A stretch of DNA of 45,114 nt, counting the filler, from Catajapyx aquilonaris (taxonomy: Eukaryota), in the NCBI GenBank assembly GCA_000934665.2. It is 2 parts of 2 records of this genome, joined end to end, with 100 filler letters (N's around TTAATTAATTAA, not from the genome) between each part and the next. Parts side by side here need not be neighbours in the genome. Positions count along the whole stretch, not along the records: positions 1 to 22,502 come from KZ539427.1; 1 more part is not named here. One strand, written 5' to 3'. Below are positions 1 to 26,369 of this stretch, in pieces. The translations under genes were made by a program, and so were the position numbers. The notes beneath the pieces are model-generated. The model saw nothing but the letters and a program-made list of their open reading frames with translations. It ran no database searches and was not told where the DNA came from. Each line of letters opens with the position of its first letter. Within the stretch, counting starts at the first letter, position 1.

Positions 1-145
1 TGGCACAGGAGCACTTGAAACCGACGTTTCATCGCTTAATTCCATGGTGAATGTGTTGGCCGACACGCACATATGCGTGCCCACCCCCACTGCTTGTTGC
101 CGTTTTCCCCAACAGAGCGCGCTAGTGTAGTTGCGCACGAGGCCT

Positions 146-217
146 ATAGGCCTGCCATTTTTCATTTCATACCAAATTTATTAATTGCGATGGTATTAAC
201 TAGATTGTGGGGTCCAA
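146..217 (-). repeat. Fragment of the piggyBac-like MITE family seen at 15501-16123
   Basis: Near-identical reverse complement of about 15528-15598 (ggcctgccattttcatttcataccaaatttattaattgcgatggtattaactagattgtggggtcc). Confidence 0.75.
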
Positions 218-563
218 GCTTCCAGCTTTCAATCATTTCAATCTCATATCTTAGAAGAGATTTTATACTTTGCCAATGACTGATTACAACATGGGGGAGG
301 GCGACTGTCGGACTAGACCAGGGGCCACTTGTTGGCACAGTTCAACAGTCAAATTTAGTTCCGTCCCCCCCTGAATATACAGAATACATATTTTCCTGCA
401 TGGGAAACAACCTCCCCATAAAAAAATACTCCCAAGACTTATGAAGACAGATTTGTACGAGTATTAGTTGCCATATTTGCTACCCCTCGATTGAGCCCAA
501 CACCTTCAGTGGCTGAAACTTCAACTGCAGCCCAACAACACCAATTCTAGTCTTATACGTTAC

Positions 564-719
564 CTGTGAGGCTTCTTGTATGATCTTGTTAATCTTTTCC
601 TTGTCGAGACCCTCCATACCCGCCTTGGTATCATTCAACTCCATCAGTCGAAGCCCAGATCCAGCACCTTCCTGGGGCGATCCTGCCTTTGACGAAGACT
701 CCATGACCATTGCCATCAT
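564..719 (-). CDS. POLK: DNA polymerase kappa (Y-family), first coding exon; rest of gene runs off the left edge of the window
   Basis: Translation LRLMELNDTKAGMEGLDKEKINKIIQEASQ matches the characteristic POLK N-clasp (LNDNKAGMEGLDKEKINKII); GT donor at 563-562; in-frame TGA upstream at 734-732 supports ATG 719 (or a nearby ATG); candidate 5'UTR donor GTAAGT at 1096-1091. Confidence 0.9.
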
Positions 720-1400
720 CTCATCCAGATCTCATCTGTTCAAGTCGGTACCCGTTCAAGTCCTGTCTTGTTCAACTGCTGGTGTCCGCCAATCTTCAGC
801 GGGTCCTATATAAATAATAATGCATTTAGGATACATCCCTGGCGATTAAAGTATATAAATGATTAGAAAATCCGGCTAGATATTAATAGGATAGTGATAG
901 TGTTTCTTACCAACGCACCGGCTATGGCACCGTGATGGCACCGGTTCTTACCAAAACGATATATGCTAATATGCACGTAAAAGCATAGCTGCTATTAATA
1001 ACTGCTTAATTATGTAGTAGTTTTTTGATTTGAAATTGATAGCATGTTATTCCTGTCTCACTTTGAGGTACTTTTGGGTGTATTTTGCAAACTTACTCGC
1101 GACACGTGTCATTTTTTAATTTTATATTTAAAACGCGCAATGTCCCATTGACGGAAGCAATCAAGGTCACTTGCATTGCAACCTGCTTTTCAAAAATATA
1201 GGTAATATTTAAAAAATTGTCCCCTATTACACACCAGATATACGGTGGTACTGTACCTTATTTATCTGTGTTTCGTAACACTTTAGGTATAATTTGATGC
1301 TTAGTTTAATATTACATGTCTCTGTCATGGATTATGTCTGTCATGGTTATTCGTGTAATCTCTTCGAGAAAAAATATAATAGTGTAAACTATGTGAGGAT

Positions 1401-1619
1401 CAGTGGCGGATCTAGACCTCGTTGTTGGGGGAGGGGGGGGGGGGTGATTTGTAAAAAATTTCTTTCCGCCATGCTTGNNNNNNNNNNNNNNNNNNNNNNN
1501 NNNNNNNNNNNNNNNNNNNNNNNNNNNNNNNNNNNNNNNNNNNNNNNNNNNNNNNNNNNNNNNNNNNNNNNNNNNNNNGCTTCCGCTGGGGGGGGGGGGG
1601 GTGATCAGGTCCGCCACTG
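1401..1619. mobile_element. Non-autonomous hAT-type element (MITE) spanning an assembly gap
   Basis: TIRs CAGTGGCGGA / TCCGCCACTG; perfect 8-bp TSD GTGAGGAT at 1393-1400 and 1620-1627; interior contains the N gap. Confidence 0.85.
1478..1578. other. Assembly gap (101 N)
   Basis: Run of N flanked by poly-G tracts. Confidence 1.
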
Positions 1620-2273
1620 GTGAGGATCCACCTAAGGTCCTAAGTTAGTAAGGTCCTATAATAATCAATGCAATCTTATCAATGCACCACGACGTGATAA
1701 TAAATGGACGCCATTTATTACTCAAACAGATGAAATACAGTACATGATGAATACGGTATATTATCACTTCATATTCAAACATCGAAATTCAAGCAGAATA
1801 CTTAATATCGTGGAGATATGTGGTTATATGGCCAAAATTATCCGACTTTATGTGACGGATAATTTTAGATACTAATATTGTGGTTTTATTTGGATTCATG
1901 ATCCAAAATTAGGTCATTCAAATGAGAACAAAAGTTTTTATAATTGCGATTTCACCACCAATGTCACTATAATGATTAGGAGTTCTAATTTATGAGACAT
2001 CTGTTCGCTTCACATAAGCCGCCTCATTACTTGTATTTACATAGATGCACTATTTGAACACATATCATAAAAATACACATCGTATGTACACACGGTATAC
2101 ACTGATACAAAAAAAGCTAACATTCACACTCCATTATTTTTAGTACAGCTCTCTTCCCCCCACCCCCTACCCCCCACATAAAATAAATAGGTCGTTAAAA
2201 GCACATTATCACTTTTGAAGAACAGTCCAACACCAAATATCTGCTCACTGAGAAAAAAAAGTCTTGTCCCATA

Positions 2274-3849
2274 TTACGAACTCCATAGATGACATGCGCT
2301 TCTGTAGTTGCACATATTCTTGGGGCAACATGATCTAAACAGCCGGTATTGCTCATCCTGTCTACGTTGACGCTGCTGAAATGCTTGGTCCTCTTCAGCA
2401 ATTGCTTCTCTGACAGCCATCAAAATGTCGTCGTCGTCGAAGATACCCCACGCTGATCGACGCAGACCTGAACGGTTGTAAAACATATAGTATCAGTTAG
2501 GAGATGTAAGGTTTGATTAGCTGACAGTGACTTACGTCCATATGCTAGGTCTCTTATTCGTCTCGAGAGTCGACATGATTCTCGAACTTGGTCGTCGATG
2601 TATTCTCGTCCACAGTAGTTGACGCTGTTGGCACTGATGTATGACCAGCAGGATATTGGTGCCATGAGTGACGCCAGCAGAAGGAACCAAACTCGGTAGG
2701 AGCAAGCCTTAGGGAGTTATATCAAACAGCTATTAGTTCATGTAAGCCTAAGCTTATACAGTATAGGTCTACCTCTGGGGGAAATTACATTTAGGCTAGG
2801 AAAATATAGGTAGGGCCTAAGTAGTCTACCTGGGTATTACTATAGATGCAGCTGTACTACTAAAGTAGTATTACATACTTTAGACACTTCAAAGTCGTAT
2901 TACAGCTATGAAAAACATGTTATAAAATCTGTTCATTTGTTCTTTCATCTCGAGGACTATAAAATGTCGGGTAGACCTCTATAATGGTTAGTTCCTGTTT
3001 CATTAGTGCATTGAATGCTCTATTGTGAGAACAGCTGCTCCATTTTGCCAGTATACATAGTAGTATTTTATTACTGTCAAGGGATAACATATTAGTGTTT
3101 TCTTAGATAAGCTAGCACCACTAACGTAGGCTACGGCGTTTTACCCATTGGTGCACGAATGGGGAGGCTGGGATAGGCCGAGCGAAGGGTGATATCGTAT
3201 GTACTATTGTAGTCGGAACATGCAATATACAGTATTGTGTAGAGAAACACTATGTAGGACACGAAAATGCTGTATGTCAGCACTACTATAAACGTATTGA
3301 ATTTGGTAACTATTGATTCAGCCCTAATATTAGGGAATTATTACAATATGACTTATCATATCTATTATTTCATCTGTCTTATATTTATCATGTGAACCAT
3401 AAAGATCGACACAAAAAAACCTTAAAAATTAATCAGGATCAGTTTGTTACTTCAACATAATTTAATGGAGGCTAGGCTACAAGGGCAACAGGTCTCATTT
3501 GCAAGGAGAAAAAGTCAACCCCGATTCGTTAATCTAAAGTATAGGCACAGTGTAATGATCTCAAGTTCGTCTACAAAACATACTCAATTACAGAAGTCCT
3601 ATTTCTTAAATACACGCATCCGCATTAAAATTCAAAGCAGTGTAGTTTATCTAGATGCTAAATAGATATTGGCGCGGATTTTTTTTAAAAGCTGCGAGAC
3701 TTTGTATGCTACATGGGCTCTAAAATCAAGTTTAAATTCATCGTTCAAAAAGAATAGTGCAATTTGGGTAAATGCCTACATAGTCCTACATGTACGATGT
3801 ACTATGACTATATTAGTTTATGGAGTTCGCACAGCACTGTACTTACCAT
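2274..3849 (-). CDS. Insulin-like peptide precursor (122 aa), gonadulin/Dilp8-like cysteine spacing; coding exons 3849-3847 (ATG), 2707-2536, 2467-2274
   Basis: Splicing ATG|GTAAGT, AAG|GCT...GGA C|GTAAGT, CAG|GT gives one open frame: MACSYRVWFLLLASLMAPISCWSYISANSVNYCGREYIDDQVRESCRLSRRIRDLAYGRLRRSAWGIFDDDDILMAVREAIAEEDQAFQQRQRRQDEQYRLFRSCCPKNMCNYRSACHLWSS; hydrophobic signal peptide, B chain CG...C, basic cleavage sites, A chain CC..C..C; branch-point CTAAC in intron 2. Confidence 0.85.
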
Positions 3850-3877
3850 GGGTGATATGCAAGTGACGACTGCGCGA

Positions 3878-3981
3878 GAAATGTGCGCCGTCTGTAGCTC
3901 TCGACGCTTTTATACCGCCTTCCTGCATTCTTCGCAAAGGGGCTGGGCCAAGTAAAGAAACTGCAGCTATCTCAACCAATC
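3878..3981 (-). promoter_or_regulatory. Core promoter of the insulin-like peptide gene (TATA box, Inr-like element, CCAAT box)
   Basis: TATAAAA at 3914-3908 (-); Inr-like ACATTT with A at 3882, 32 nt downstream of the TATA T; CCAAT at about 3977-3981. Confidence 0.7.
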
Positions 3982-5093
3982 AGATTCGAAGAGCATTGTT
4001 ACACTCGATAAGATAGCTGATAATAATGACATTTTTCCAGCTCTTGGTATTTTACTGCACAGCAAGAAAGCATTGTTAAGCATGGATTCTTCAGCGCATA
4101 TCATTCGTGGTGTATTTTGATGGACATAGTTTGTCCAAGTCATCCACACCATATTATGCAGGTCCACGTGCGGTTTCAAACCTTGCAGTAGGAAAATTAT
4201 ACTGGAATTGTTTCAATTGCTTCATTTGTTTTTTTAAAAATCTGGCAGGCCTTCTCTCTCTCTTAGGAAGTTCAATAAATGCATATATTTACTTTACTTT
4301 TTACTGTAATCTATACGATATACTTTATAGGCACAGTTACATCATTTTGCCATGTCTTCCGGCATAATCGTGCTAGGTGAGCAATGAAATGCTCTGCCTT
4401 ATACAACATTGCTTATATTACTGGGACTATATCATGGTACATTTGACATCAGTGACATTGAAAATGCATTGCAGCAAATTCCGTCTTTCGGGCACATCCA
4501 TTAAGTCACCTTTGATAGGATAATAATAATTCAATCGACACTGCAGAAGTGCAAGGAAATAGCTGCACTGTTAACCTTCAAATTCGTGGTTTATTTCGCA
4601 TGCATTAATGCGCTCTATAATAGGGCTATAACGAAGCGTGAAAAAGGCCAACATGTCACGAAATGGCGGCTCAGCACTACTTGACTCAATCCACGCCAGC
4701 ACTGAACATGGCTGCCACCTCACGTTTTCTACCTTAAATCAGGCAAAAGATATATCACATTCTTATCCCATCTACTATAGGTCAATAGTCCCATCTGAAC
4801 CCGATTCTGTACTATCGGCATGTGGAATGTGACCTACATATATGCCCGCCAAAGAACAATGCTCCAAGCTTGGCCTGCATGATGAGTGAGTCGCCATCTC
4901 AACCTTCATTGACTGTCGCAGTTAGATAGATCAGGTATGGCAGCCATGCCCCACAAGCATCTTATTTGGTTTGAAGTTAGGCCAGTACAAAAGGCACTTA
5001 CAGAACAGGATGTCACATGTCACATTGTTGGTTTAAGGAATTTAGAAGACATTTCGTAGGACTTGAAACAAAAGGTTCCATTAAACTCTACGC

Positions 5094-5336
5094 CAGTGGT
5101 TCCCAACCTTTTTCAGGTCGCGACCCTCTTTCGTGATAGTCAAGTAACTTGCCCCCCCTCCCACACCAGTATTAGTAGAATATTAATGCAGTGTAGACAT
5201 ATTAAAACATTTTTTTAAACCTTCGTGGTAAAATTCCTGAAAGTTCCCTATGAAATTTATTGCACGTCAATATTACCGCGGACACCGCGCGACCCCCGGA
5301 AAAGGCTTCGCGACCCCCAGCTTGTGGGAACCCACT
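5094..5336. mobile_element. hAT (Charlie-like) MITE
   Basis: Left end CAGTGGTTCCCAACC, degenerate right end GTGGGAACCCACT; internal GCGACCC subterminal repeats; TSD degraded. Confidence 0.7.
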
Positions 5337-6319
5337 ACGTAATAAAACTGTCTGTTTATAAGCAGCCCGTTTGTTGAACAACTTAGGTGCGTTGTTGTTC
5401 AACACGCTACTACATACTTGCATAACTCGAAGATGTATAATATAGTAAGTGCGATTCATACAGCTGAATAATTAACCTTGGCGAAGAGGAAATCTCCAAA
5501 ACGGAGTGTGTCGGTATACAGTACCGGTACAAGACACAACCCGGCTCTGGAAGCAAATTATTGGTTTAGCAGTTCTGTATAGGCCTACTCATAAAAGTCA
5601 TAAGACATAAAGCCATAAAAGGTAAAGCTATCGGTTGAGCCATTTGAGTTGGAATTTGTCGGTACCTATATAGTATAGAGTATACCTACGTAGCTAAACA
5701 CATGACATAGAATTCACTCCCCGTAGGCTAATAACAAAAACATGAGGAACCATCTGGATCTGGTTTCCTCCGTTTCGGAACCTGTCACACGACTGTGCTC
5801 CTTCGCGAATTTCGCATAGCATACACCTTGGTTTGGAACCAGATTGCCAGCGTATGCATTATTCAGTCAGCATAGTGTGTTACGCAAATGCGTATATCAG
5901 TTTTAATTCCTGTGTTGGTGTTCACGTGTTCGAGTGTTTCTCTATGGTGACATACCACTGGGGCAACAGTTCTGGCTGAAACACGGTGTTTTTGAAAGAT
6001 TTATTGTAAATATCGGGTATGCCCATTTATTGGAGAGAAGCGCCTTCATGGGCTTCTTCCTCAAGGCAGAGATGGACATGTCCGATGCATACATTCATGA
6101 CTGCATCCGTTCAAGCAATGCACCCCAGGTGGGTATCAATACCTAGTAAAAATATTGTACCTTATTATAAACTACCCACAGTTAGTTAGCCCTAGTTTTC
6201 ATAGTAAATGTAGGTGTTCTAATATAGACCTTTAATAAAAAATTATTATTTTATGGTCATATTTGAAATATTCATTTTCGGATTTTCATTTTGAATGTAC
6301 AATATCATATAATGTCGGT

Positions 6320-6536
6320 CAGCGTCGGATTTCCCAATAGACAGAGTAGGCAATTGTCTAGGGGCGGCCGCTATCTGGAATATAATTATACATTTTTTTG
6401 AAATAAAATAAAATAAAACAAAACACAGACGAGAACACAGGAGAAAAGTGAAATTTTTATGCGACATATGGGGGGAGGGGGGGATCTCAACTGCCTAAGG
6501 CGGCCCAGGGGGGGCCGGGGGGTAAATCCGGCGCTG
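6320..6536. mobile_element. hAT-type MITE
   Basis: TIRs CAGCGTCGGATTT / AAATCCGGCGCTG; 8-bp TSD ATGTCGGT (6312-6319) / ATGTTGGT (6537-6544). Confidence 0.85.
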
Positions 6537-7533
6537 ATGTTGGTTACTACATAATTATGCAATAGCAAACTATTATTAGCCCCACTGCACAGAGGTGGCT
6601 GATGTCACAAAATTATTGTGGGCATACAAAAGATATCCACTAAGTCCAAAAAAGCAGTTTCGAGATAATCCAAAGCAAAGATTTAACTGTATTTTCTTAC
6701 ATGCTATAGTGATGACAGAAAAACCCTGGCTTCTTGGCTCATTAGGAATATATTGAGGACTAAATGGACTTCACCAGGCGACAGAGCATAAAAAATGCTA
6801 CTAAGTGGTGTAAACCCCTGAAAAACGCCAAAATTGGATTTAGTTGTTAGTGAATTTCTCCTGTATGCTGGCAATATACCGCATGATAATAATGATTATT
6901 AAAAAGTCTCAAGTCATAATCATTACTTTCTTTTTACATGCTTTACTTTTTTTACTAACTGTAAGCTATGAAGCTGTTTGTGAGAATGGTGACATACCGG
7001 TACTAGTACTCAAAATACTGTATTGTTACATAGTAGGCCTACTGTATTTCATAACCTGCCTTACTATTATTTTAAAGAACACTACATCGCTGTCTTCTCC
7101 CTATCTGAAAAAGACTTGATTGTAGTTATCTGTGTAAGATTCTCAGCACGTTTGAGAGGGGACAAGAATGTTGCTATGTCCCAGAGACAAAACATGTTTT
7201 GGTTTTATTGTTGATGTTGCCCATGACAAACAACAACAGTGCTGATTTCAGCTTCCCAGACCTACATCACTAATCTCCTTCAGCATTTCTACTTATCTCA
7301 TGTAACTGTTAAGGCATATACATGATATACTGTGCAGTGTACTACAATGTGTGCTGTCAAAGCAACATTTCAGAGTGAGAAAGGGGAGAGATATGATAAG
7401 GGGACTGTTATTGGTGACCATTTCAGCATTACATAGTTGGATTACTACTGTGCACTCCAAACTTTTTACCCAATCATAAATTAGGTTGCAAGTTAGCAGG
7501 TGATAATGGCTTTATAGTCACACACTTAAATAC

Positions 7534-7803
7534 TTTTTTTTTTTTAAATATTAGATCCTCTCCAATAGGCCTGTGACCTCCTCAGGAAGGTTTTAAATAT
7601 CTGTCTTAATTAGCACTGAACCACTTACGGATTTCGAGAGTGGGAGGAAATGAGGAAGTACTGCGAAAACCACATGACCGCAGGCAGAAGTCTTGGAGAC
7701 CCAATCAAAATTCTTCCCATGCGCTAAAATTAATCCAGGGATTGAACTCATGTCTTCCGAGATGGTATAGAGGTGGCGTGAATCAATACACACTGAAGTG
7801 GCC
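7534..7803 (-). mobile_element. Degenerate tRNA-derived SINE related to the 33160 element
   Basis: Poly-T tail on + strand, shared core (GGATTT..AGTGGGAGGAAA...GAAAACCAC) and degenerate B box (GGGATTGAACTC). Confidence 0.55.
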
Positions 7804-8730
7804 TAGCAGAGTTGTTAGGCCTTCAGGCTGCCATTTAGGAGCTAATAGGTGCTAATCCCAGGAATGACCATCCTGACTTTGGACTATCCCTGTGTTGCTC
7901 TGGATCACTTCCAGGATGAATCCAAGCGTTTCCTTTGAGATTGACCTTGGCTGCTTACTTCTTGTCCTGCTCCTCTACAATGTTGTACAAAGGTCAATCC
8001 TGTACCTCCCTGAGACTTCCTTCGTTGCTTGCTCATGCTTATCTAGTCCAGTGGAGTTTTAAAAATCTTGTAATATTTATTCTTTGAGTTCACTGCATTT
8101 CAATGGAAAACCAGCTTGGAGACATAATTTTGTTGAGCAGGATCAAGAGTCAGTGCAGATCTACACACCATTTGCAACACCAGGAAGAGTAACGAAACTT
8201 ATCTTGAAATTCTCTCAAGTCTTCCTTTTACGAATAACTGGGGTATGAACAAATTATCCCTAGGAATAAAGCAGCCAAAAGTAGCGTCTCTTCAATCGAT
8301 ACATCACAGCAGAGGTTCATGATCTGTTCCAACTTCGTTACTAATTGGATCCCTTAATTAATATTTTCTGCCCACTAATCACCTATTTTTCATCTCGAAA
8401 GTGGCCATCAACCTGCAACTTGCACGTATTGCATTAATTTAGTTTTCTTGTTGATGCCTAAAAAACACAATGCATTTTTTTCCTTCAAACTGATTCGTAA
8501 ACCTTGACCCTAAGGATCAAATGGAAATGAACTCATTTTTTCTGTATCCAATAGTACATCAGCAGAAGGGGATAGGAATTTCCTTTGTCACTCTAGGGTG
8601 AGCAATAACATTCCCTCCAGGATTGACGTCAAGTGAGTTTTATTTTCAAGACACAAAGTAACTCCAAGCCATAATAAGAGTAACAATGCAGAAAGAAAGG
8701 AAATGGCAGAAAATTCATTTGGTGTTCTCA

Positions 8731-11700
8731 TTAAGCGCCAACGACAACCTTCTGAGGCCCCTTCTGGCTCATGCTTATTTTGTCTCCCATGCTCAAAGCC
8801 ATGCCCTGAAAAGAAATAATAACAATATAATAATATCCAGCACATTCAACTTCATATATGTCCAAGTACGACTATCAGGTAATTATTTACATTGTAGTTA
8901 TTTCTGTGTATTGTACTATAAGGATGTTAATTTGGACAAACAATTACCAAAAGAGCTGACCATGTATGACTGTAGATAATTATGTAGACTTTACTTTGTT
9001 AATGTTGGAGATTTTAGTAACGTGGTGAACAGTTTCTCTTAGCAAGTTGTTCACTTTTTTGAGGACATGCAAGATGTGCGTAATATTGAGTACCATCATG
9101 GTAAGGTTTTGTGAGACATAGCATTATGCACATATCTGGTGATTGGCTAGTACAGTGCTGGACATTAATTATGTCGTACTGGTAGCGACATTTTCCGATG
9201 CGGCAGAAGTGCGAAGAGAATTGATGGAGTGTGAACTGGGTGAGTAAGAAAAGGTAGGCCTTGGATGACGTCACCAGCTGTGGGCAATGGGGAAAAGGCT
9301 TGTCTCCCAGCTAGTGACGTCACCCAAGGCCTGCCATTTCTTACTCACACGGTACACACTCCATCAATTCGCTTTGCACTTCTGCCACATCAGAAAATGT
9401 CGCTAGAAGTACGACAGAATTAATGTCCAGCACTGTACTATGCTTAGGTCCTTGTGCATATCGACTGCTCAAGTCATGGGGTTGAATAACTAGGGCTCAA
9501 GAGTGAATCAGGGTTGAACCCAGAATCAAGTTGGATCTGTCTACATGATTTAAAACAAGCACAAGGTTGCACAACTCCAAGCACTGGAACTATGTCTCAA
9601 CCTGTTGTACAGTGCATGATAACCTAACTGAACACAAGTAAAATGAAAGTAAATTTACATCTGTTCTGATACACAAGTCAGAACTGTCCCTATGCATTCA
9701 TTCCACTTTAGCTAAAGTTGTTGTCGAAGATTTATTTTACACAAAACTTAGGTATGCATGAATGGTGCAGTACTTGTGTGAGCAAGAAACTAGTGTAGAG
9801 TCTACACAAAAGTGGGTCAGACTTCTGCTTGGCCTAGTCCACACTGGAAAATGTTGGTTCAGCTGAATTAGGCCTACATGTTGCAAATAATGCACCACAT
9901 ACCTGACTCTTAGCCCTAATGCGAATGTGTCCAACAACAGGTGCATCAGGCTTGTTTGGCGGCTTCTCCACACTCAGGTTTGCCAGTGCATCTTCTCCAA
10001 AGATAGATCGAGCATACAGGTTGGCAGCCATGAACCCACATTCACCAGAAAGTGCCTGTTGAATCAGAGTTTCATAGTATAAGAATGAGAAAAACTACAC
10101 AACAAAATTAACAGTGTAAAAGCATCAACTAGTGATAAAAATCACATTATGTAAAATTGAAAATAGGGAGTAGACATGAACAAGATTGACCTGACCATTC
10201 TTTGAATAAGAGACTCCCTTACTGCTGGGATTATTGCGGGTAACCCATTAATCTCGTACTTCAAGTGGGGTATGGAAATTATCATGATGATACATATGGA
10301 GGACTGCAGAATATCCTGGCCTGTTGGTTCATTATGAGTCTTTAGTACGAAATGGCTTTAGCCAGACAACAGCAAACAAATGCTACTTGGGGCAGGTTGT
10401 ATGCACATGGGTTAAGGTTAACTATGGAGTTAGGTGTTACCCTTAACTAATGTTCATACAACTGGCACTTAGCTATATAAATATCGTAGCTCTGGAGTCA
10501 AAACAGCATAACTCGCTTTTCTGCCGATTTCGGGTTTTTTATTCTGAAAATTTGGCATTTTGTGCTGCATCTGCCATCAAAACGGCGTAATTTTTTGCCC
10601 AATAGGAGAGAAGATATGGCCAGGTTAAAAGACTAAATCTCAATGCAAGAGTAATTTTTTTTTCCAGTTTTTTGCTCTCCTGAATAATTAGTATTATTCG
10701 AGTTACGTGGTTTTGACTCCACAGTGCCGATATCTTAAAACCGTCAAAATGGGTCTAGTGGATTTACCACAATATTCCACATGTGAAATTGAAGTATATT
10801 TAACCAGTAGTTTAAAAGGTAGTCATGATCAGTGTAAGATACACTCTTGCCTTTACCTAAAAAGTATAAAATATTTTCAATTCAATTTTGCATGAGTCAA
10901 CTTGAATGTTTATGATAAAATGATTGTTCTACTGTATATCAAATCAACTTCTAATAAAATTAGAGAAAATAAAATCAGTGCCATACCATGCAACATATTA
11001 TACAAACAAACAAAAACTCATCCATCTGAAAACTACACACATATTTAGTGATGAGACCTCCCCACAGCATTCTCACTCACCTTGTCTGGAGTGAGACACT
11101 TCATGTTAGTGGTCTTGATTAGATGAACAAGGTAATCGTTAAGGTCAGTGATGTTGGTGTTAACTGACACCTTATTCTCCCATTCAAATTCTGCCCACAT
11201 GGCACGGAATTCCGAGTCCGTGCAGGTGGCTGGGACTATGTAGTCGATTATATCGATGTGAATGTCATTCAGCACCACGACATTCCGGTCCGAGGTAGCA
11301 CCTGACACATCATACACTGCATAGAAAAGATAACTGGGTTAAAACTCTCAAAATAGTAATCACTTAGAAAAAATTTTATCAGAGAATTTTCAAGCAAGGG
11401 CTAACATTCAAAAGCAAAATGCTTGATTGCTATAATCTGGACAAGTTCATACCAATGTTGCCAAATATTATCCCATTTTCAGTGGAAGCAACCTTGACAT
11501 TGGCCTTAATATTGCAGAAATCATGTGGGGCCAATACAATAGGCTGAGGCTTCTCAACCAGTTTAAGATCACCCAGGGTAGCCAACTCCAAGGTGCAGTT
11601 CTGCAATGTGTCACCTAGAACACAGATAAAAAATATATATTGTACTCTCATGTCCATTATAAGCCATTAATAAAAATTCATTCCTTCAGGAAGAACTGCA

Positions 11701-13551
11701 TTATCCACATGTAGAGTGAATCAACAAGGATCCCTAATTTTGTGAATGTTCCTCATTCATGTGCTTTTTTTCTGCCACACACGTGAAGGGGCAAACCATT
11801 AGGACTCAGTAAGTACATCATTTGGTTTCTACTGATGCATGTAACATAATATTTTCTGCCTACTGGATAACAACTAAACAAAGACAACTTCTATAAGCAC
11901 AGTGGTCCTTCTCTGTTGATTCATCCTACATAAGATCACATTGGCACAAATTTGCATTCAGTCATTCTTAATCTGCATGCAGATGTATTTCCAGTCAGCT
12001 GGACACCACATAATTTTATACATAACATATGATCTTACAAGTACAGTAGTTTATCCAACTCCTTGGATTATCCGACCGTCCCGCTCCAGCAATACAGTCA
12101 AATGTCAATATAAAGCTCGCGCATATAATGCTTTCCTGCGTTTAATGCTCCTTTTTTTGGTTCCCTTGATCATTTCCATTGATCCCACATGTAACGCCAT
12201 CCCGCTTATAACGCTACTTTTGGGCGATCCCTTGAAGAGCGCTATATCGAGGTTTTACTATCAATGTATGTTTTCTCATCAAATACTGCAATGCAGGCCT
12301 ACTAATCATTTGTTTTGTATTGCCTTAGTTAAATTTTAAACAGCAGAGTGTGTACGTAAAAGATAAATACTTCTCTATTTCTTAGAAAAGCATAATATTG
12401 TAGATTATTACATGGTTTTTTAAATGCTTTTTGTTGTGTTTTCCTTTGCTCCTCGGATTATCTGACCTTGACTGTTATCCGACAATTCCCCAGTCCCGTG
12501 GGTGACGGATAATCAGGGTTGTTGTACTAAAACGTTAAAAAATTAAGATCTTTGATTACCTGTCTGGTTGACAACAAGGACATCAAGCACAATGTCATAT
12601 TGATTGACATGCACATAGGCCTCTGCATAGACCGGGTCAGAAAACCCAGTGAGCTGTGTGACTTTGTTTAGCTTGGAGGCAGCAATGTCAAGGGCCGCCC
12701 CATCCTTCTTGGTTACACCCATAGCCTGGCTTAGGCTCAGCTCAAAAACATTCTCACTCCCAGCAAGATCACCCTTTGAGGATAACTGCAAGAATGAGAT
12801 GGGGTCATCTGCTTGGACAGCCCTGGACTTGGCATCACTGCGGGACGATTGCTTCACTGTGGCCAACTCCTCCTCTGCCTTCTCTGCCAGCATTATTGAT
12901 AAGGCTTGACGGCAGTCAGACACAAATACCTAAAATAGCGGGCCAAAATGTGAGGAACAATTTGATATTCAATGTGTAAAAAGAGCAACACCACGCCATG
13001 GTATTCTACAGTGAAACTCTGTTGAACCCATGCACAGTACACACCTTAACCAACTGTGCTGGTCGCTCTGCAAGCACCTTGAGACATAGGGCAATTCTGT
13101 CTGCATCATCCTCAGTGACTGGTTTAGTAGGGAGTCCTGAGCGTCCCAAATGCAGCACAGAAGCCAATATTAGCATGGCCTCTGCACAAAAACGGTTCTG
13201 CTTGATGCAGTCCTCCTCGCTGTCTCCACAGAGAGAAGCATAACGCAGGGCCAACTTTGCCAAAGTAGGGCCAAGAGATGCTCCCAGGAAGAAGTCGCCA
13301 TCCATCAAGTATTGTCGGAGGGGTGGACGGTCCTGTGGTTTCTTTGGGGTACTTGACATGGTGGAGAAAGGACACATCAGAATGTAATTCTTGTACATTT
13401 AAAACAATTTTTGTGGTCTGCATCACATAAGGAGGAACAGACTTCGTTGTCATTTTACACGTAGTGTACAAATAAAATCCTATTTTAAAATCCTAATAAC
13501 TAGAAAAAATTAATGTCATCAATTAGATCAATTGATAGATTAGACAGTTGC

Positions 13552-13640
<89 letters not shown>

Positions 13641-16600
13641 TCATACCCCGTTATCAGCCATCGGCTCTTTAGGGGGGAAATTTGTTTTGCCCGGAACTCT
13701 TTGCTTTTCATTTTACTGTGCTCTTTGGGGTAGGATAGGGAAGGAAGGAAGCGGCTGTGGCCTATTAATTACGGAAGCAACTCCGGAATTTTCCTGGAAG
13801 GACCGTGGGAAACCACAGAAAACCACGGTCAGAGTTGCCGGCCCCGGGATTTTATCCCAGGACCTCCCGATTAGCAGTCGGACACCATATCCCCTCCTCC
13901 AAACTGCTTCGATGACACAGTTGCATAATCAATGATAAACCAAGGAAGTCATTAATCCCATACAAATAACACAGGATCAACCAGTGACTTCAAAATTACT
14001 ATGGTACTATCGCATACCAATTGTCTTTCTTTTCTACTGTTAATGAAGTGGGCCCCACTCCAAAAATATTTCTGGCTATGCTAGTGCTCAAAGCTTACCA
14101 TCATTCATGCAACTGGCTCTTAGTATATACTGCAACCAAAGGTCTATTCATCACTCACACTGCAGCACTAAAAGCAGACTGCGTAGCATATGTCCCATCA
14201 GGTGTCACCAACTTCTGAACTGGCATCTGCTGGGTCATTAGCGAATCATCCTGTTTCTCCCCAGCAGCCAAGCGCTGCTCATCCTCCACAATGGGAAGCT
14301 ACAGTGGGATATGATATACATGGATTGATCATATCTGTTGAAAAACACACAGGAACTAAATAAACGTACCTCTCCAAGCAACTGCCTGATCTGGTTCATC
14401 ACTGTCTGAATGTCTTCTGGTGAAGTAGCATACTCCCCAAGGATCCAAAGAGCAGCACGGTGGACACGCACCACTTTTATGCCCGGAAATGACTCCAAGA
14501 GACGCTGAAAAGGGGGCCATTATTGACGGCATAGCACTCCACAGGGAAAGTAACAGGAACTGTTAATGCCATGTGACTTTACAACCATAATTTGATGAAG
14601 ATTAAACAGCTAAATACGTTACTCCAATTTTACAACTACCAACACCTTTCCACAACAAGTCATATCCTACCTCAATGATGAGTGGTCTAAGGGGCTCAAA
14701 CTTCTGAATGGCTTCCCTGACAAAAACAAGCACATCCACTGCAGCTAACTCATTGGTATCAGAAAGAAATTCCATGAGAACAGGGATGACGGTTGCAGCC
14801 ACATCTGGAAACTTGATACAACAGGAGTGCAGAGTGCGAACCAGCAGTTGGCGATAGCGGCCCGTGTCCTCATGTTCCACCGTGTTGTGAGTCTTCGACA
14901 CCTCCTTCTTTAGCACCAAAACCATCTCTTCAATGTTGCGAGAGGACACCAGCTCCATTGCTAGCCAGGTGAAACAAACTTCAGTTAGTTGGGGGTTTCT
15001 GCCTTTTTTGTACTGACAGTTTACAATTAGGCAATGAAATAAATTGTGAATATTTTTCTCCAAGTTCCAATTAATGAACATTCAAGCAACAAATTAGGTA
15101 GGTCAAGAGCGAAGTCCAGATTGCAATAGGAACATAAATTTAGGAGTCAGATGAATAGTGAATTTACCATCTCTAATCAACTCTGACCCATATCGTAAAT
15201 TTATATGAAATGTTAGGTTAACAAGTTTAAGTTATGTAGTAAACTCCTACAAAAGTACAACAACATGAATTGAGGTGCTCAGAGGAAGAACGGCATAGCC
15301 CAACTTGAGTTCATTTTGAGAAAAATGATGGACAAATTTTACAAGTGGAATATGTGAGCTTTGACATATCCCAATTCATTTGGTACTTCAGCACATGAAA
15401 GGTAGATGGCAGGAGAGTACAACAGCACTACAATCTCAAAATTGGAGGTCAGTTGGGATATGCCGTTCTTCCTCTGAGTACCTCAATTGTGTATATTTAA
15501 CACTTAATCACCAACGTGGGGTCATTTTGGACCCCACAATGTAGTTAATACCATCGCGATTAATAAATTTGATATGAAATGAATAATGGCAGGCCTATCT
15601 ATATTCCTCAGACATACTTTCTTCGATCCAATGACAAATTTTGACATCAGTAGAATTTTTTTTTGTTGAGTTAACGGTACTTTTATGCTGCTAAGAGTCC
15701 CTGTGGGGTCCAGATATACCCCACGTCGTAGCCAATGTACATAATTTTTTAGAGAACCCATCACAGCAAATTGTATTTTATAAAGTGTGAGTGTTGTTAT
15801 TCAGCAATAAATATTGCTCAGAACTAAAATCTTGCCAACCCTGCAGCTGGGAATGTTTACGTTATAAGCCATTACTTACTGCATCGAGCTGGAAGGCTAC
15901 GAAGCTGCAATAACGGAGTCTCAAGTCCCTTATGACTCAACTAATGGTCACAGGAGATCGAATTTTTTTTACACATACAGATGAGAATACAGGCCGAATT
16001 TAGCGGGGAAGAATGGCTTTAGTGCTATTAAGTCAAATTTTTTAAAAAATGAAAACTGCGTGGGGTCCGTAAAGACCCCACGTCGTAGCCAATGTATGGC
16101 AGATTCACGTTGGTGATTAAGTGTTAAGTGAAGTTTTAAGTCTCTAAGCATCAGCCAAAGTATATGAGCCCGCCTAGTCATTTAGATTCAAATTAACATC
16201 AACTCCATGTCCAAACCTGTGCAAATCCCATTCATTAAGCCATAAATTTGAGTTGCCCAAACCAAAGTAGGATTTGCAGTTGTCATCAACCTGTTAACGG
16301 AACCCTGCAGGGAGGTATTTTTAGTTTTACGTACAACTGTAGCCGTGTGTCTTTAGTTTTAATAGAGTAGGTCATGAATTGTTTATGGCTGCTTTGCCTG
16401 TAGTGAGAAAAAAATTGGGAGAAGTTGTAGAAGCTATCATTAGAATATAAGAATACTCCAAGCTAAGTACAGTACATATAACTATAGGCTTGGTCTAACA
16501 GGCCCTCCTCCATTCTAAAATGCATCTGCATGAAGGGTTCATCAGTTTTGGAAAACAATAATTTCATCTTGTTCCAGTTAACCATTTGTTGTCTATTATA

Positions 16601-18972
16601 ATACAACCACACAAAATAATTTTTTTTAATGCACTGGTATAATCCCGATGGAAATTTCTTTCACCATAGCCTTAGGTAACTCTTCTTGTTTCTATGTATT
16701 TATGCCACCTGTGTCGTATTTTTAATGGTACGACGTCATAGGCCAAAGGTCTCACTCATTGTAAAGAAACACTTACTGCACAAATTTAAATACACATAGC
16801 TCCCTGCCAAATATTTCCCGGTAAGTGGACAAAAGTGTCCTTGCTCCTAATTGGCCGGGCGGACTGCTCAGAGCTCTAGGCAGTGGCCGCTTGCCACCTG
16901 GTGGCTCACAAGACTTCTGTTTAAACTAGACCTTTGAAAATTTTTAAATTGACACTTCATGTTTTCATAATTTATCAGAGGGAGTGGGCAAACATGTAGA
17001 ATTATCTTGGATTATTACGAGGGGTGGAATCCGCCTAAAAAAACCATGTAGATGTCGCAATAGGATAAAGTCACCTTCTCGTGCATAGCATATGGACAAA
17101 ATGTTTATTCTGTTCCCAACCCCTGGGTCGCCTTCATGTTTTTAGTGGTCGTGAGGAAGGCAAGGAAAAGGCAATTAAAATCAAGAGGAAAAAAACAGAA
17201 GAAAAAAACAAGGCAAAGAAAATTTAAGGGTGGAAATTCATCTCAAATCTACATAAGCATTGTGCCAGGGTGAACATTTTGGTGATAATTCTTCTTGGAA
17301 AAATCCAGGATGGGGTCATACGGGTCGCCCGACAAGTTGTCCATAGGGTCGCGACGAAATCAGGTTGGGAATAATGCTGGATAGTCAGGATAAACATGTT
17401 GTCAATAGAGTTGTACCATTCTTTTTTATGAGAGAGACTGTACATGGTTCTCTCATGATGCAACTTGGGTTTGTAGGTCTCAGACGCTTCAGCCCCATCT
17501 TGTGCATGAATCGAGAGCGAAACCAATGGTGCCAGATCCAGTGATTTTCACCTAGGGCGCTATTTTTAAACCCCCCACGCAAAGAGTGCATAATGCAGCG
17601 GGAGACAAAAGGTTAACCAATAAATTCTTCGATACAAAATTATGACAACACATCTAACATTCGAAGCTAGCCTGAAGATTGCATGGGCTATCTGCCAAAA
17701 GAATTGCATTGCACATATTAAAAGGTGTATATCTTGCTGATTTGGTCCCCATGTGTAAGCCAATCATCCCTGATTGCTTCAATAACTGACAAAAATAAAC
17801 AGAATAGAACAGCTAGGGGTTCACCTTGCATAACACCCTGCTTAATGTTCATTGCTGGACGAGTCTTTAAAATTGCAGATATAAGACTCTTCTAGCCTAT
17901 GGACTGACCTAGATTAAGAGTCTTCTTCCTGACTTCAAGGTCTGGTGATGACAAGACCCTCAGGATATCCATGACAAGATCTTGTAGCACCCTCTCGTGA
18001 GTGGGGTGATCCTTCAGAGCCACCAGCCTGTCCAACACAATCAGCTTAACATTGTTATCACTCTCCTTCACTATCAGATCAATGTAGCAACTGGCAGCAG
18101 CTTTGATGGCTGTTGGAGCAGTGGACAATGTAACTAGAGTGCCAGCTGCCTCATAGCGAACTGCTGCTGAACTTGAGTTCAGCAGGTTGTAGATGCAACG
18201 GATGAAGCGTGAACGCTCAGAGGGGTTTGCATGACAAACCTACAAACATAAGAAATAGGAGATACAGTTAGTAGTAATAAAAACTCTTCCTGTGGGAGTT
18301 CAGCGAACTTCACTGAACTATGTTAACACACTGTTCAAACACCTCATGTCAAACTGACACCAACCTTGTAGATGAGTTCAACGATGACAAGCTGCAAGAT
18401 GTCTCCAAAGGAGTTCACCTGATCAACACATGAACTGAGGTAATTGAGAGCTCGGTCTTGATCAACATGTACCAGCATCATGAAAGCATTGCGCTTGCAG
18501 CTCATGTCCTGCTCCTGCTCCAGGAAGCTGGCAATCAGCTCTGGGGCATCCGGGATCAGAAACTCAAAGTTGCGATAGATTGTGAAGATGGCCAGGACAG
18601 CATTGCGGCGCACATAGGAATGCCGATGCTCCAGGCAGTTTCGGATGGCTGGCATGAGGGGCTCCAGCAGCTCAGGCTCCTTCAGCTTACACAGAAAGCG
18701 GAGGGTGGAACCACGGATGAACTCATTGGGATGTTGCAGGTCCTTGCGGTACGCATCACACACCAAGATCATCTCCTGCATAAGTTTGCCATCTTGTGTG
18801 GTCTTGGGAACAATTTCCCAAAAGACAAGCAGCAACTTCTTGATGGTGTGGTCTTGCAAGGGCAGCACAAACCGTATTATGGTCATCAACAAACCAGGCA
18901 GTTTTTCGCCATTTAGAATCATGTAGATGGTCTTCTTCAGAGCTTCAATCTTCTGCTTCACATCCCCCTTTT
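8731..18972 (-). CDS. COPB1: Coatomer subunit beta; exons 18972-18365, 18239-17909, 14960-14671, 14504-14370, 14298-14159, 13351-13045, 12929-12560, 11614-11453, 11316-11081, 10055-9903, 8805-8731; first coding exon (~30 aa) not found
   Basis: Highly conserved beta-COP peptides ([99 protein letters not shown]); GT-AG boundaries and phases are consistent; stop TAA at 8733-8731. Confidence 0.97.
9153..9435. mobile_element. Foldback MITE (Tc1/mariner-type, TA TSD) in the last COPB1 intron
   Basis: Termini CAGTGCTGGACATTAATT / AATTAATGTCCAGCACTG; almost the whole 283 bp is an imperfect palindrome; flanked by TA. Confidence 0.85.
10481..10733. mobile_element. Degenerate MITE
   Basis: Inverted termini ATATCGTAGCTCTGGAGTCAAAACAGCATAACTCG / CGAGTTACGTGGTTTTGACTCCACAGTGCCGATAT. 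Confidence 0.6.
12044..12524. mobile_element. pogo/Tigger-like MITE with a second Tigger-like MITE nested at about 12095-12260
   Basis: Outer TA-CAGTAG start with GGATTATCCGAC / CGGATAATC subterminal motifs; inner termini CAGTCAAATGTCAATATAAAGCTC / GAGCGCTATATCGAGGTTTTACTA. Confidence 0.55.
13552..13640. repeat. (AAT)n microsatellite, about 29-30 units, forming the SINE tail
   Basis: Perfect trinucleotide run. Confidence 0.98.
13557..13916 (-). mobile_element. tRNA-derived SINE with (ATT)n tail, resembling insect Lm1/Talua-type SINEs
   Basis: 13-bp TSD ACAGTTGCATAAT at 13544-13556 and 13917-13929; body GGAAGGAAGCGGCTGTGGCC...GGAAACCACAGAAAACC...CCCAGGACCTCCCG; family resemblance is from memory. 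Confidence 0.8.
15272..15484. mobile_element. MITE with GAG..CTC termini and 4-bp AATT TSD (Sola-like)
   Basis: About 34-bp TIR GAGGTGCTCAGAGGAAGAACGGCATAGCCCAACT / AGTTGGGATATGCCGTTCTTCCTCTGAGTACCTC; AATT at 15268-15271 and 15485-15488. Confidence 0.8.
15501..16123. mobile_element. piggyBac-like non-autonomous element
   Basis: TTAA TSD (15497-15500, 16124-16127); perfect 18-bp TIR CACTTAATCACCAACGTG; internal direct repeat GTGGGGTCC..CCCCACGTCGTAGCCAATGTA near 15702 and 16059. Confidence 0.88.
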
Positions 18973-19230
18973 CTGAAAATGTCCAATGTAAAATACATAA
19001 GGTTTTTTCTCTCTTACCAGGAACTGAGCACTTGTAAAGTGAATTCCTCAGCCTTGTGGACTATACATTATTTTGCACTTTTTGTTGCAGTATGCCAAGA
19101 AAATCAACATCATTCAGATATGAACCTGTCTAAATTATCACCATATGAAAAAAGGCAGCATATCTCAAAAGTCTAAGTACATTAGAAAATAAAAGAATTG
19201 GTGAGGTAAGAATTACCTAGGTCACATGTC

Positions 19231-22602: not shown

Positions 22603-23296
22603 GGGGGGGAATCACGTACGCATTGATTCAACTAATCTTCTAATGAAATAAAAAGTTATCACGTGGTAACACTTCCTGGAAAGAATACAATCACTCTTGC
22701 TTGCAGGCAAATAATGTCTCTTGCTAAGTTAGTCAGGTGTCAAATTAGTTTCTAAACTAAATTCCTTCAAATTTAATAGCCAAGTATAACTTATATTAAA
22801 TTGATATTATTAACAAAATCAAGAAGCTGGCTATGTGTCTTGTTTCCAACCCCATAAGGCAAATGCATGGAATGATAATAAACCATAATCTTCTCGAAAA
22901 GTTTTATAGGCCTATGCCACCCAATCTTATCAGTTCGAAAGCAATGTACAAATATATTTTTCTAATTAATGCAGTGGGGCAAAAAAATTTACTTCCTGGA
23001 TTATCTCACTGCCCGACACCGCATATCCTCTGACATTAGTTATAAAGCAGGGTGAAATGTTCATGAACCTATCGCATTCTGTCGTTGTAACATTTGTGAC
23101 GTATGGGGTTTGGGGGAGCACTACAAATATTTCCCTGCGCACTTTCGCCACCGGAAGGTCTGTTAGATATTGATATCAAGTCTTGGAAAGCAGCGCAAAC
23201 CGGCTAATAATTTCCGATTCATAATTTGTGCAAATTATAATAAGAGTGAGTCGAGCGTAGGGCATCCAGTCGGCAGCCAATTCAATCCTGAGCAGC

Positions 23297-24469
23297 ATGG
23301 AGGGATGGGTTCTTCGGTGGACTTGCTTGTGCATTGCAGCTTTGACCTCATTACCTGCTATCCTTGGGGAAGTGGAGGAGATGGGCGAAGGTGATACTGA
23401 ATGCCCTGATCCGTACTACCGCCTGGGACGACATTGTTACTTCTTCAGCGGTTCACTCTCTTTCAACTGGTGGACAGCTGGAGAATTTTGCCGGACATTG
23501 AAAGGAACACTCGCTGACATTCATGACGAAGAGGAAAACGGCCTTATTTCAAGTTATATCAACACCAGTAAGTATATACTAGTATAGTTTCATTTTATGG
23601 TGAAAATAATATTTTATGTATCGTAATTATTTACTGTGTAGCAAATCCTGGTTACTATTGGATTGGAGGCTACGACCTAGGACACCGTGGTTATTGGTAC
23701 TGGGAATCTTCCCGAGAGCCCATGACATTTACCAGACTGGCACAAGGCACACCTCATGTAGTAGCAAAAATGGTCAGTTCAAAGGATCAACATTGTCTTA
23801 CTGTCCAAGTTACCAGTGCACTATGGAAGAGGGCAATGTGCATGCAACCTTTGCCCTTTGTCTGCAAGAGGAGCGATTCTCAATGTGTAGACGTTCAGCA
23901 GAATAATGGTAGGCCTACTTGATTATCTACGTCAGAAAAAAATGTTCCCTATCTGTTAATATCGTAATATTTTCCTGGAGGTTTCGGAAGTTGTCCTGAA
24001 TCATTCGTCAGGCTAGACACGGGATGTTATTTCTTCAGTGACAATCTGGAAAGTGACTGGCCTACCGCATCCGCAAGTTGCAACAAATTAGGGAGTCGCT
24101 TGGCTATTGTCGAGACCCCCGAAGAAAAAGCAAGCCTCGAGCTTCATGTTCAGCAAAGTGAGTTGTTCAATTTCCTTCTCATTTGATATCATTGCTTACT
24201 CATTCGAGTGGTATTTTTCAGATTACCCCAACACTTCCTTTTGGCTTGGAGCAGTCAAAGTTAAGGGTGAATGGGTGTGGGAGGGGTCTGAGAACGATGT
24301 GCAGGAATGGGAGGAAGACTATCGCGAGGATGGTCAGCAGCAATTGGTTCATGGAGGCTGCATGCTGATGGCGGAACCGAGGAATTCATTTCAGAGAAGC
24401 GAACAAGACTGTGGGTTTCCCCACAACTTTGTGTGCGAGGCTGGAATAGCTGATGGGGAACTCGCATGA
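23297..24469 (+). CDS. Secreted dual-domain C-type lectin-like protein; exons 23297-23567, 23642-23908, 23981-24157, 24222-24469
   Basis: Signal peptide MEGWVLRWTCLCIAALTSLPAILG; two CTLDs each with CP..CYFFS..W..A...C...LA.I, WIG/WLG and C...C.....FVC; phases consistent; AATAAA near 24623. Confidence 0.9.
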
Positions 24470-26369
24470 CAACGTACATATATTCTGGATCTTCAGTGAC
24501 ATCTGTGACCTGTCATCTTGTTGTGTATGATGAACGCAGCAACATCATTATTTGAAGAAAAATATTTTCATTTATCATTTTGATACTCGAATTTCCTTTA
24601 TGATATTTTTGTAAACGAGGAAAATAAAAAAAACAGGCTCCATCTTATGCAGCTTTTTAAATCAAAGAACATGTTGAGACAGCATAACAATTATACCGGA
24701 ACGTTTTTTTTCAGCACACACTGCAACATTGCTTCTCTCTTCGCCTATAGCAGTATAGATCTGCATCGTCATGAAACACCATGCTCTAGGCCAAATGCAC
24801 CTGAGTGGATTGAATCAACAGATAAATAGTTACTATGAAAACATAAAGTATTGAGATGCTGTAGAAGGACTTTCCCCTGAAATAAAGCAAATAAACCCAC
24901 CTGGGGAGCTGCTAGGGTGAGTGGTTTGGGAAGCAATAATTTATTGACGCCCCCTACCCTCCAGAAAGGTGGCTTCAGAAACGCACAAAGCTTCAGGAGC
25001 AGTGTTATATTGTTTAAATTTCTAGTTTGTTGTATTTCTTAGGAGACGCAACTGACATTGTAGAAACAGATCGTATATGCCTAAGGCATCATTGGCCATG
25101 GTTTCGTAAGTAAGCACTCAGCAAACTAGAGCTTCAATGGTTCATGATGGTTCGGTGTGTAGCAATATTTCTACTTTTTAAAAAGGTTTATAGCCAAGCT
25201 TCTGTGCTACCCCTGCTACCATCGTAAATCACCCGGACGCATGGGCAGTGAGACCAACACACCTGGAAAGGAAAAGCCATTAGACACTCCTCCTTCCTTG
25301 TCACCAAAGAATAAAAGCGAGAGCAATATTTCCTGGAGGAAATCTTTCAGACCAACAGGTATCATGACCCATTATTATAGCGTATTAAAAAGGGCTGCAA
25401 GACATGACAATCGCAGGACATAAATAATAAATTACACTTCAGAAGTACCAATAAGAAAATTGAGCAGTTGAAGGCTAGTAATAATGAAGTTATATTGCAG
25501 ATCTTGGTGACGAAGTATGCAACAATTCGCAATTAGAAAGAGGAGGTATGAGGCGCTGCGTCTCCTGTCGCGAAATGCGGATCGTCAAATTATTAACCGG
25601 ATGGTAAGGGTTCAATAAGTATCAATAACCATCAATATAATATCACAAAGTAATTATTCACTTAGCATTTCCACTGGCTGGCCAGAATGCCCTGGATGGT
25701 CTGTTCAAGCGGAGTGCAAGAGACGACTCCGGCTAAATTCTTCCTGCCATTCACGTTAGACAGTGTGGGGTTGGGGGGTAACACAGTGAGAGTTTGTGTG
25801 TTCATAAATAAATTTTAAGTAATGTACTGACGGACCAAAATTGACCTTCATTTGATCATGGAGAGATTAGATCCACCTGGCCTGTGCTCTCCGAAAAAGT
25901 TTGCTGTGATGGCCAAATTACGTCGAGTCTACGTGTTGTTGCCAAAATTGGTTCAGGAGAAATGGTGCATGCCCACTCATTTCATTTAAACATACAAAGC
26001 ACTGGGAGGCGGGAATATCGGGGAATATAATATGACCTTTTATTTCTTCAGCAGGAATATCACATTTGAGTGTGGAGACGTAATCGGGAGGGGACGGTAC
26101 ATTGAGACATTTACACGTGCTCTATCATAATAAGCCACGAAAAAAGAAATTATTGTTTACTTTCTGGTAGTAGAAATCTGACAAAAACACACACAAAATT
26201 ACATTTTTTTCCATTTCATAAGTATCAGTAATGACAACTTACTCATAAGTCACTCAACTCACACCCTGTATATATGCCCTTCCCATAGATATTTGACCAT
26301 GACAAATGCACCTAGTAATCCGTGTCACGTGCTTGTCCTTCCTTGATTACTCATTGCGATGCTCAAAAT

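Follow-up and report, generated by a model that had tools for sequence, protein, structure and literature searches.

A spliced gene between POLK and COPB1 of Catajapyx aquilonaris probably encodes a divergent insulin-superfamily prepropeptide

In insects, hormones of the gonadulin/Dilp8 type link growth, tissue damage and reproduction, and their variability is such that manual inspection is usually the only way to find them. Canonical insulin has the cysteine spacing C-x11-C in the B chain and CC-x3-C-x8-C in the A chain. The vertebrate insulin gene has three exons; one of its introns is situated at the 5' leader or close to it, and the other, of phase 1, interrupts the C domain. Here we describe a candidate gene of this superfamily in a stretch of 45,114 nucleotides (hereafter the window) from Catajapyx aquilonaris (assembly GCA_000934665.2), in which positions 1 to 22,502 come from record KZ539427.1. 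An initial annotation made from the DNA had proposed that a three-exon hormone gene lies hidden there between POLK and COPB1. Our analysis indicates that the locus is an expressed gene on the minus strand and that its product probably is a divergent prepropeptide of the insulin superfamily, with the arthropod gonadulin/Dilp8 type as its closest match in layout.

Gonadulins have already been described from insects, decapods, Daphnia, spiders, scorpions and a mite (PMC7357564; 10.1101/2020.03.19.998484; this and the other literature statements made here follow portions of the sources named). Dilp8/gonadulin has been linked with the receptor LGR3, and in some insects and spiders the gonadulin gene adjoins the aIGF or relaxin genes (PMC7357564). 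Gonadulin sequences are described as too variable for homology searches (PMC7357564). A phase-1 intron in the C domain is characteristic of all insulin genes (PMC8286064), and the decapod preprint states that every gonadulin intron is of phase 1 and names furin as the convertase to be expected (10.1101/2020.03.19.998484). Furin-type sites are expected for peptides that are made outside neuroendocrine cells (PMC7357564; 10.1101/2020.03.19.998484).

The candidate gene is a three-exon mRNA of at least 856 nucleotides with a TATA-containing promoter region upstream. Its features are as follows.

3908..3914, minus strand: TATAAAA box, found by reading the sequence, its role suggested by position only (37-43 nucleotides upstream of where the RNA contig has its 5' end)
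3847..3871, minus strand: exon 1 to the extent given by the RNA contig, 22 nucleotides of 5' leader followed by the ATG at 3849-3847
2708..3846, minus strand: intron 1, 1139 nucleotides, from GTAAGT (3846-3841) to AG (2709-2708), phase 0, directly after the ATG
2536..2707, minus strand: exon 2, with residues 2-21 of the predicted signal peptide (2707-2648), residues 22-58 as the putative B-chain region (2647-2537), and one base, the first, of codon 59
2614-2612, minus strand: codon of Cys33, in exon 2, which also holds Cys46
2468..2535, minus strand: intron 2, 68 nucleotides, from GTAAGT (2535-2530) to AG (2469-2468), phase 1, splitting the codon of Arg59
2274..2467, minus strand: coding part of exon 3, with RLRR, residues 59-62 (down to 2457), and the stop codon TAA at 2276-2274
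2456-2373, minus strand: putative acidic connecting peptide, residues 63-90, in exon 3, net charge -7
2372-2361, minus strand: RQRR, residues 91-94, in exon 3
2360-2277, minus strand: putative A-chain region, residues 95-122, in exon 3, with the CC codons at 2330-2325
1808..2273, minus strand: 3' untranslated stretch of exon 3, given to the limit of the contig, with AATAAA at 1890-1885

The splicing is seen directly in one 856-nucleotide contig of a public sequencing run (run X1), which joins all three exons with no mismatches. Its segments correspond to 1808-2465 and 2534-2706, plus 25 nucleotides at 3847-3871. The joints, at 2465/2534 (skipping 68 nucleotides) and 2706/3846 (skipping 1139), read CT..AC on the plus strand, that is, GT..AG on the minus strand. 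With the cut offsets stated for the alignment, they coincide exactly with the predicted junctions 2467/2536 and 2707/3847, so that the spliced sequence by which the initial annotation was to be checked is present, for both junctions, in a single RNA-derived contig. The short exon 1 side of the contig, all 25 nucleotides of it, occurs once in the window and found a match in none of 100 shuffles. The true start of exon 1 may be further upstream than 3871.

No run recorded as RNA is listed, and the kind of run X1 is not on record. Its RNA origin is taken from COPB1 splicing: six COPB1 introns are spliced out in one of its contigs, of 3139 nucleotides, and the run is therefore RNA-derived and from the same organism. 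A quarter of the sampled words of positions 2100-4100 were present in the run, and its contigs were compared over positions 1650-13500 of the window. Contigs of this kind define neither the ends of an RNA nor its absence; the mRNA starts at 3871 or upstream of it and ends at 1808 or beyond, and nothing is concluded from the lack of coverage in intron 1, at 1650-1807 and upstream of 3871. The contig depths, 78.3 for the candidate gene and 30.7 for COPB1, are not usable to rank the genes.

The reading of the exons agrees with what had been proposed from the DNA. The ATG-only coding exon with its GTAAGT donor, the TATA element upstream of it, and exons 2 and 3 with the in-frame 68-nucleotide GT-AG intron between them were all recovered at the coordinates first given. 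When the exons are joined by coordinates in a script, the coding sequence is 369 nucleotides long and yields the expected product of 122 residues, with no internal stop. The peptides initially quoted for the B chain (YCGREYIDDQVRESC) and the A chain (RSCCPKNMCNYRSAC), as well as the RQRR motif, are found in the exon translations. The position between POLK and COPB1 also holds, both neighbours having been identified by matches.

Several features of the frame are those of a coding sequence. It begins at the first ATG of the mRNA (nucleotide 23) and is the longest open reading frame there, the next being 53 residues. With codon frequencies drawn from the clear exons of the window (1409 codons), its log-odds score is 0.042 bits per codon, compared with -0.14 to -0.39 in the five other frames. 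Windows of 366 nucleotides from intron 1 have a mean score of -0.64 and a maximum of -0.40, and the observed score was reached by none of 2000 shuffles (z 3.3). The G+C content at third codon positions is 0.49 in the frame and 0.50 in the training exons, in a window with an overall G+C content of about 0.40. Exons of housekeeping genes score higher than the candidate frame (0.17-0.31), as would be expected if the latter belongs to a peptide gene that is short and evolves fast.

A spliced non-coding RNA, or the leader of a neighbouring gene, could in principle carry a 122-codon frame by chance, and the frame is known here from genome and RNA sequence alone. Against this reading, the frame is open across two splice junctions from the first AUG onward, and it outscores both the five other frames and all 2000 shuffles. 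The frame encodes a predicted signal peptide followed by an ordered set of cysteines. Moreover, the three exons account for the entire contig, with no letters left over for another gene. We consider a non-coding transcript very improbable, and the candidate gene is almost certainly real, expressed and protein-coding.

The precursor has the layout that is expected of an insulin-type prepropeptide. The N-terminus has one Arg and then a hydrophobic run of 13 residues, with nine-residue Kyte-Doolittle windows of up to 2.5 (residues 7-15), and small residues at Ser-Cys21 or Ser-Ala27 permit cleavage. By this hydropathy heuristic, which supports the signal peptide of the initial annotation, residues 1-21 or 1-27 are predicted to form a typical signal sequence. 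The precursor contains eight Cys, of which residues 3 and 21 fall in the predicted signal peptide. The other six (33, 46, 105, 106, 111 and 117) would be retained in the mature part, in the order of B and A chains that had been claimed for them. They form the frame C-x12-C, 58 residues, CC-x4-C-x5-C, in which the last Cys is five residues from the C-terminus. The first B-chain Cys is directly followed by Gly (CG). Two sites of the form R-x-[KR]-R, RLRR at 59-62 and RQRR at 91-94, flank a 28-residue spacer with a net charge of -7 and are putative places of cleavage. An intron in the C-peptide region had been claimed as well, and intron 2 is indeed located where the C domain begins, in phase 1: it falls after the first base of codon 59, which is 13 residues past the second B-chain Cys and thus at the border of the B chain and the C domain.

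A processing pathway of the insulin kind can be proposed from this layout. The hydrophobic N-terminus would direct the product into the endoplasmic reticulum and would be cut off after Cys21 or Ala27. The two extra Cys would be lost because of this proposed cut. The six remaining Cys would pair as in insulin (Cys33-Cys106, Cys46-Cys117 and Cys105-Cys111), and a furin-type convertase may cut after RLRR62 and after RQRR94, which would free the 28-residue acidic connecting peptide. The predicted product has two chains, a B chain of up to 37 residues and a 28-residue A chain beginning with Gln. From what is known of the family, it might serve as a secreted signal for growth or reproduction. If it is a gonadulin, it would be expected to act through an LGR3-type relaxin-family G-protein-coupled receptor (GPCR), as Drosophila Dilp8 does.

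The candidate shares with canonical insulins, insulin-like growth factors (IGFs) and relaxins the order of B chain, C domain and A chain, the basic cleavage sites, and the Gly after the first B-chain Cys. It also shares the gene structure of canonical insulin genes, namely three exons, a first intron at the 5' leader or close to it, and a second one, of phase 1, within the C domain. However, the B chain is C-x12-C rather than C-x11-C, and the B-chain region has few hydrophobic core positions. Neither half of the product matches the Insulin family of Pfam (PF00049), and the A-chain spacing is not the canonical one, a departure that recognised gonadulins also make.

Such a layout might also arise by convergence. 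The product could be a lineage-restricted, secreted, Cys-rich peptide unrelated to insulin by descent, such as one of an antimicrobial, toxin-like or pheromone type, whose Cys order and dibasic sites came to look insulin-like independently. No sequence method ties the candidate to insulin, and its spacing is non-canonical, with a loop of four residues after the A-chain CC that is found in none of the 43 gonadulins tallied below. In addition, RSCCPKNMCNYRSAC has a weak match to the sea-anemone toxin family ATX_III (PF08098). This match is below the cutoff (15 bits against 25, E 0.027) and covers profile positions 1-15 of 27, and the toxin family was rejected on Cys content as well: ATX_III has six Cys within about 27 residues, whereas the matched stretch has four. 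For a generic Cys-rich peptide there is no reason to expect a phase-1 intron at the border of the B chain and the C domain, which is expected for insulin genes. The same is true of the two R-x-R-R sites around an acidic spacer, of the CG after the first Cys, and of a last Cys near the C-terminus. When six Cys were placed at random in the 101-residue mature part, 47 of 1,000,000 placements fitted a loose insulin/gonadulin frame, although this frame was defined after the data had been seen. We regard a convergent peptide as possible but unlikely. The assignment to the insulin superfamily, which rests on layout and gene structure and not on sequence or fold, is moderately favoured; family membership is not proven.

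Among the members of the superfamily, the candidate is most similar to the gonadulins. For 43 gonadulins, the ones displayed from supplement file 2 of PMC7357564 (Veenstra 2020), we counted the Cys spacings by eye. The B chain is C-x12-C in 21 of these and C-x11-C in the other 22. The loop from the CC to the next Cys has three residues in most, five in 6 and seven in 3. The last A-chain loop has eight residues in most, ten in the 13 scorpion sequences, and five in 4, which are Drosophila Dilp8, the Glossina sequence and two from Hermetia. Like the gonadulins, the candidate has a signal peptide, by prediction, and six Cys in insulin order. Its C-x12-C B chain is found among them, and its five-residue last loop is that of Dilp8, Glossina and Hermetia. 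The loop after the CC is variable in gonadulins, from three to seven residues, and the four residues of the candidate are inside that range. It further resembles them in the lack of an acidic residue immediately ahead of the A-chain CC (the candidate has Ser there), in the phase-1 intron, in cleavage sites that are furin-type rather than neuroendocrine-type, and in a sequence so variable that homology searches fail. By eye, and unscored, two motifs are common to the aphid gonadulin and the candidate: the B chains have CG-x-E-[FY]-I, and the A chains have F-R-x-C-C-x-K-N.

The same layout could also belong to another subtype of the superfamily that acts on an insulin receptor tyrosine kinase, either the insulin/IGF type or the crustacean androgenic-gland type, instead of on an LGR3-type GPCR. 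Decapods are reported to have four types of insulin-like peptides (10.1101/2020.03.19.998484). Against this reading, the B-chain spacing is x12 and not x11. The same preprint states that insulin, relaxin and androgenin without exception carry an acidic residue directly before the A-chain CC (10.1101/2020.03.19.998484), where the candidate has Ser. Finally, a short last A-chain loop is seen only in the Dilp8-type gonadulins among the 43 tallied. A subtype acting on the tyrosine kinase is thus improbable. The gonadulin type in particular can be suggested tentatively, from the spacing and motifs of the predicted chains, as a reading that falls somewhat short of even.

A number of results weigh against an insulin-superfamily, and more narrowly a gonadulin, identity. 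The CC-x4-C spacing of the candidate occurs in none of the 43 gonadulins, and CC-x4-C-x5-C departs from canonical insulin, IGF and relaxin in both loops. Decapod gonadulins follow a rule of Arg at -3 of the A-chain CC (10.1101/2020.03.19.998484), whereas the candidate has Arg at -2 and -5 (the aphid gonadulin also has Arg at -2), and it has Asp/Glu 8-9 residues before the CC. Searches of Pfam with each exon product singly, at E values up to 10, gave no Insulin (PF00049) match; each half in such a search holds one chain only. An exhaustive HMMER search of 1.84 billion representatives, made with the exon-3 product only, found no relative, its single match (E 8.7e-5) being a repetitive match to the acidic helix. 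No relative was found by word-index searches in the 'longer' class with both halves, nor by searches of the Atlas and of PDB sequences. AlphaFold2 models of the exon products taken singly have low confidence (mean predicted local distance difference test scores of 62.1 and 62.5), with low-confidence helices in the exon-2 product (4-29 and 39-56) and in the exon-3 product (11-45), and are uninformative on the insulin fold. The 45-kb window contains no second insulin-like gene, and hence no aIGF-gonadulin-relaxin neighbourhood such as surrounds the gonadulin gene in some insects and spiders; neither an aIGF nor a relaxin gene stands beside the candidate there.

The blank searches carry limited weight because gonadulins are described as too variable for them (PMC7357564). 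They are limited further because the organism's own proteins seem to be absent from the collections, as its COPB1 has matches of at most 92% identity. Six short motifs that were searched for occur in none of the three supplement files of PMC7357564, and Rfam returned no family for positions 1-9000. A six-frame scan of the 45-kb window found three A-chain-like Cys patterns, and only that of the candidate gene is in an open frame with a B-chain partner. The initial annotation had called the locus a real, highly divergent hormone gene. That claim stands in part: the gene is real, is spliced as proposed, is coding-like and has the layout of the insulin family, but no relative was found and the spacing is non-canonical.

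If confirmed, an expressed example with so unusual a Cys frame, from another arthropod lineage, would help to show how much change of loop length the insulin fold can accommodate, and would provide a candidate ligand for relaxin-type GPCRs in this lineage. The candidate might even found an undescribed branch of the superfamily with its own disulfide frame, that is, a short-A-chain, Dilp8-like form outside the flies that stands alone between POLK and COPB1 and outside the aIGF-gonadulin-relaxin cluster, although we consider this doubtful. If it were true, the short A chain of the Dilp8 type would be older than Diptera or would have arisen twice, and studies of LGR3-type receptors in an arthropod other than an insect would gain a new ligand. 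For specialists the gene is a useful yet expected addition; its spacing is unusual, and its presumed kind is already known. It also illustrates that raw sequence can be enough to recover a gene whose first coding exon consists of the ATG only, and that public RNA contigs can then serve to verify it.

The neighbouring genes were identified by their matches. An N-terminal exon of POLK is at 480-731 on the minus strand (E 7e-7 against solved human POLK chains). An N run at approximately 1480-1580 is an assembly gap between the 3' end of the candidate gene and the first coding exon of POLK, and the promoter region of POLK is incomplete because of it; the window contains 189 N in all. COPB1 is on the minus strand as well, from approximately 19060 down to 8623. 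Its large exon at 18344-19060 (minus strand) is 90-92% identical to arthropod COPB1, with the best named matches in an ostracod, spiders and scorpions. The joints by which the COPB1 contig connects the last exons of that gene, at 8804/9902, 10054/11080, 11316/11453, 11612/12558 and 12927/13043 all read CT..AC on the plus strand.

A microsatellite and an apparent repeat were noted in COPB1 introns. The long trinucleotide microsatellite at approximately 13560-13650 would encode about 35 Ile in one frame. At 12066-12513, several contigs of run X1 align with low likeness, many base differences and loose ends, and with odd joints (12091/12263, AT..TC; 12293/12369, CA..AT). This segment looks like a dispersed repeat that is transcribed elsewhere.

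The remainder of the window contains several other open stretches. On the plus strand, three of them at 23261-24469 have pieces of the Pfam domain Lectin_C (E 6e-4, 8e-7 and 1e-4) and probably make up one gene in which there are two C-type lectin domains. At 26319-27077 a 252-codon frame on the plus strand, with no Pfam match, overlaps with one of 220 codons on the minus strand; the G+C content is raised there (0.46), and the stretch could be the remnant of a repeat or mobile element. A single open stretch of 343 codons at 29007-30038 on the minus strand contains the C-terminal subdomain of a protein arginine methyltransferase (PRMT_C, E 1.7e-23). A gene with a RabGAP-TBC domain is at 36099-39493 on the plus strand (E 1e-35 on 36413-37048). 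After this domain, at 38328-39131, there are long open stretches without a Pfam match, and a 180-residue open frame in antisense overlaps these.

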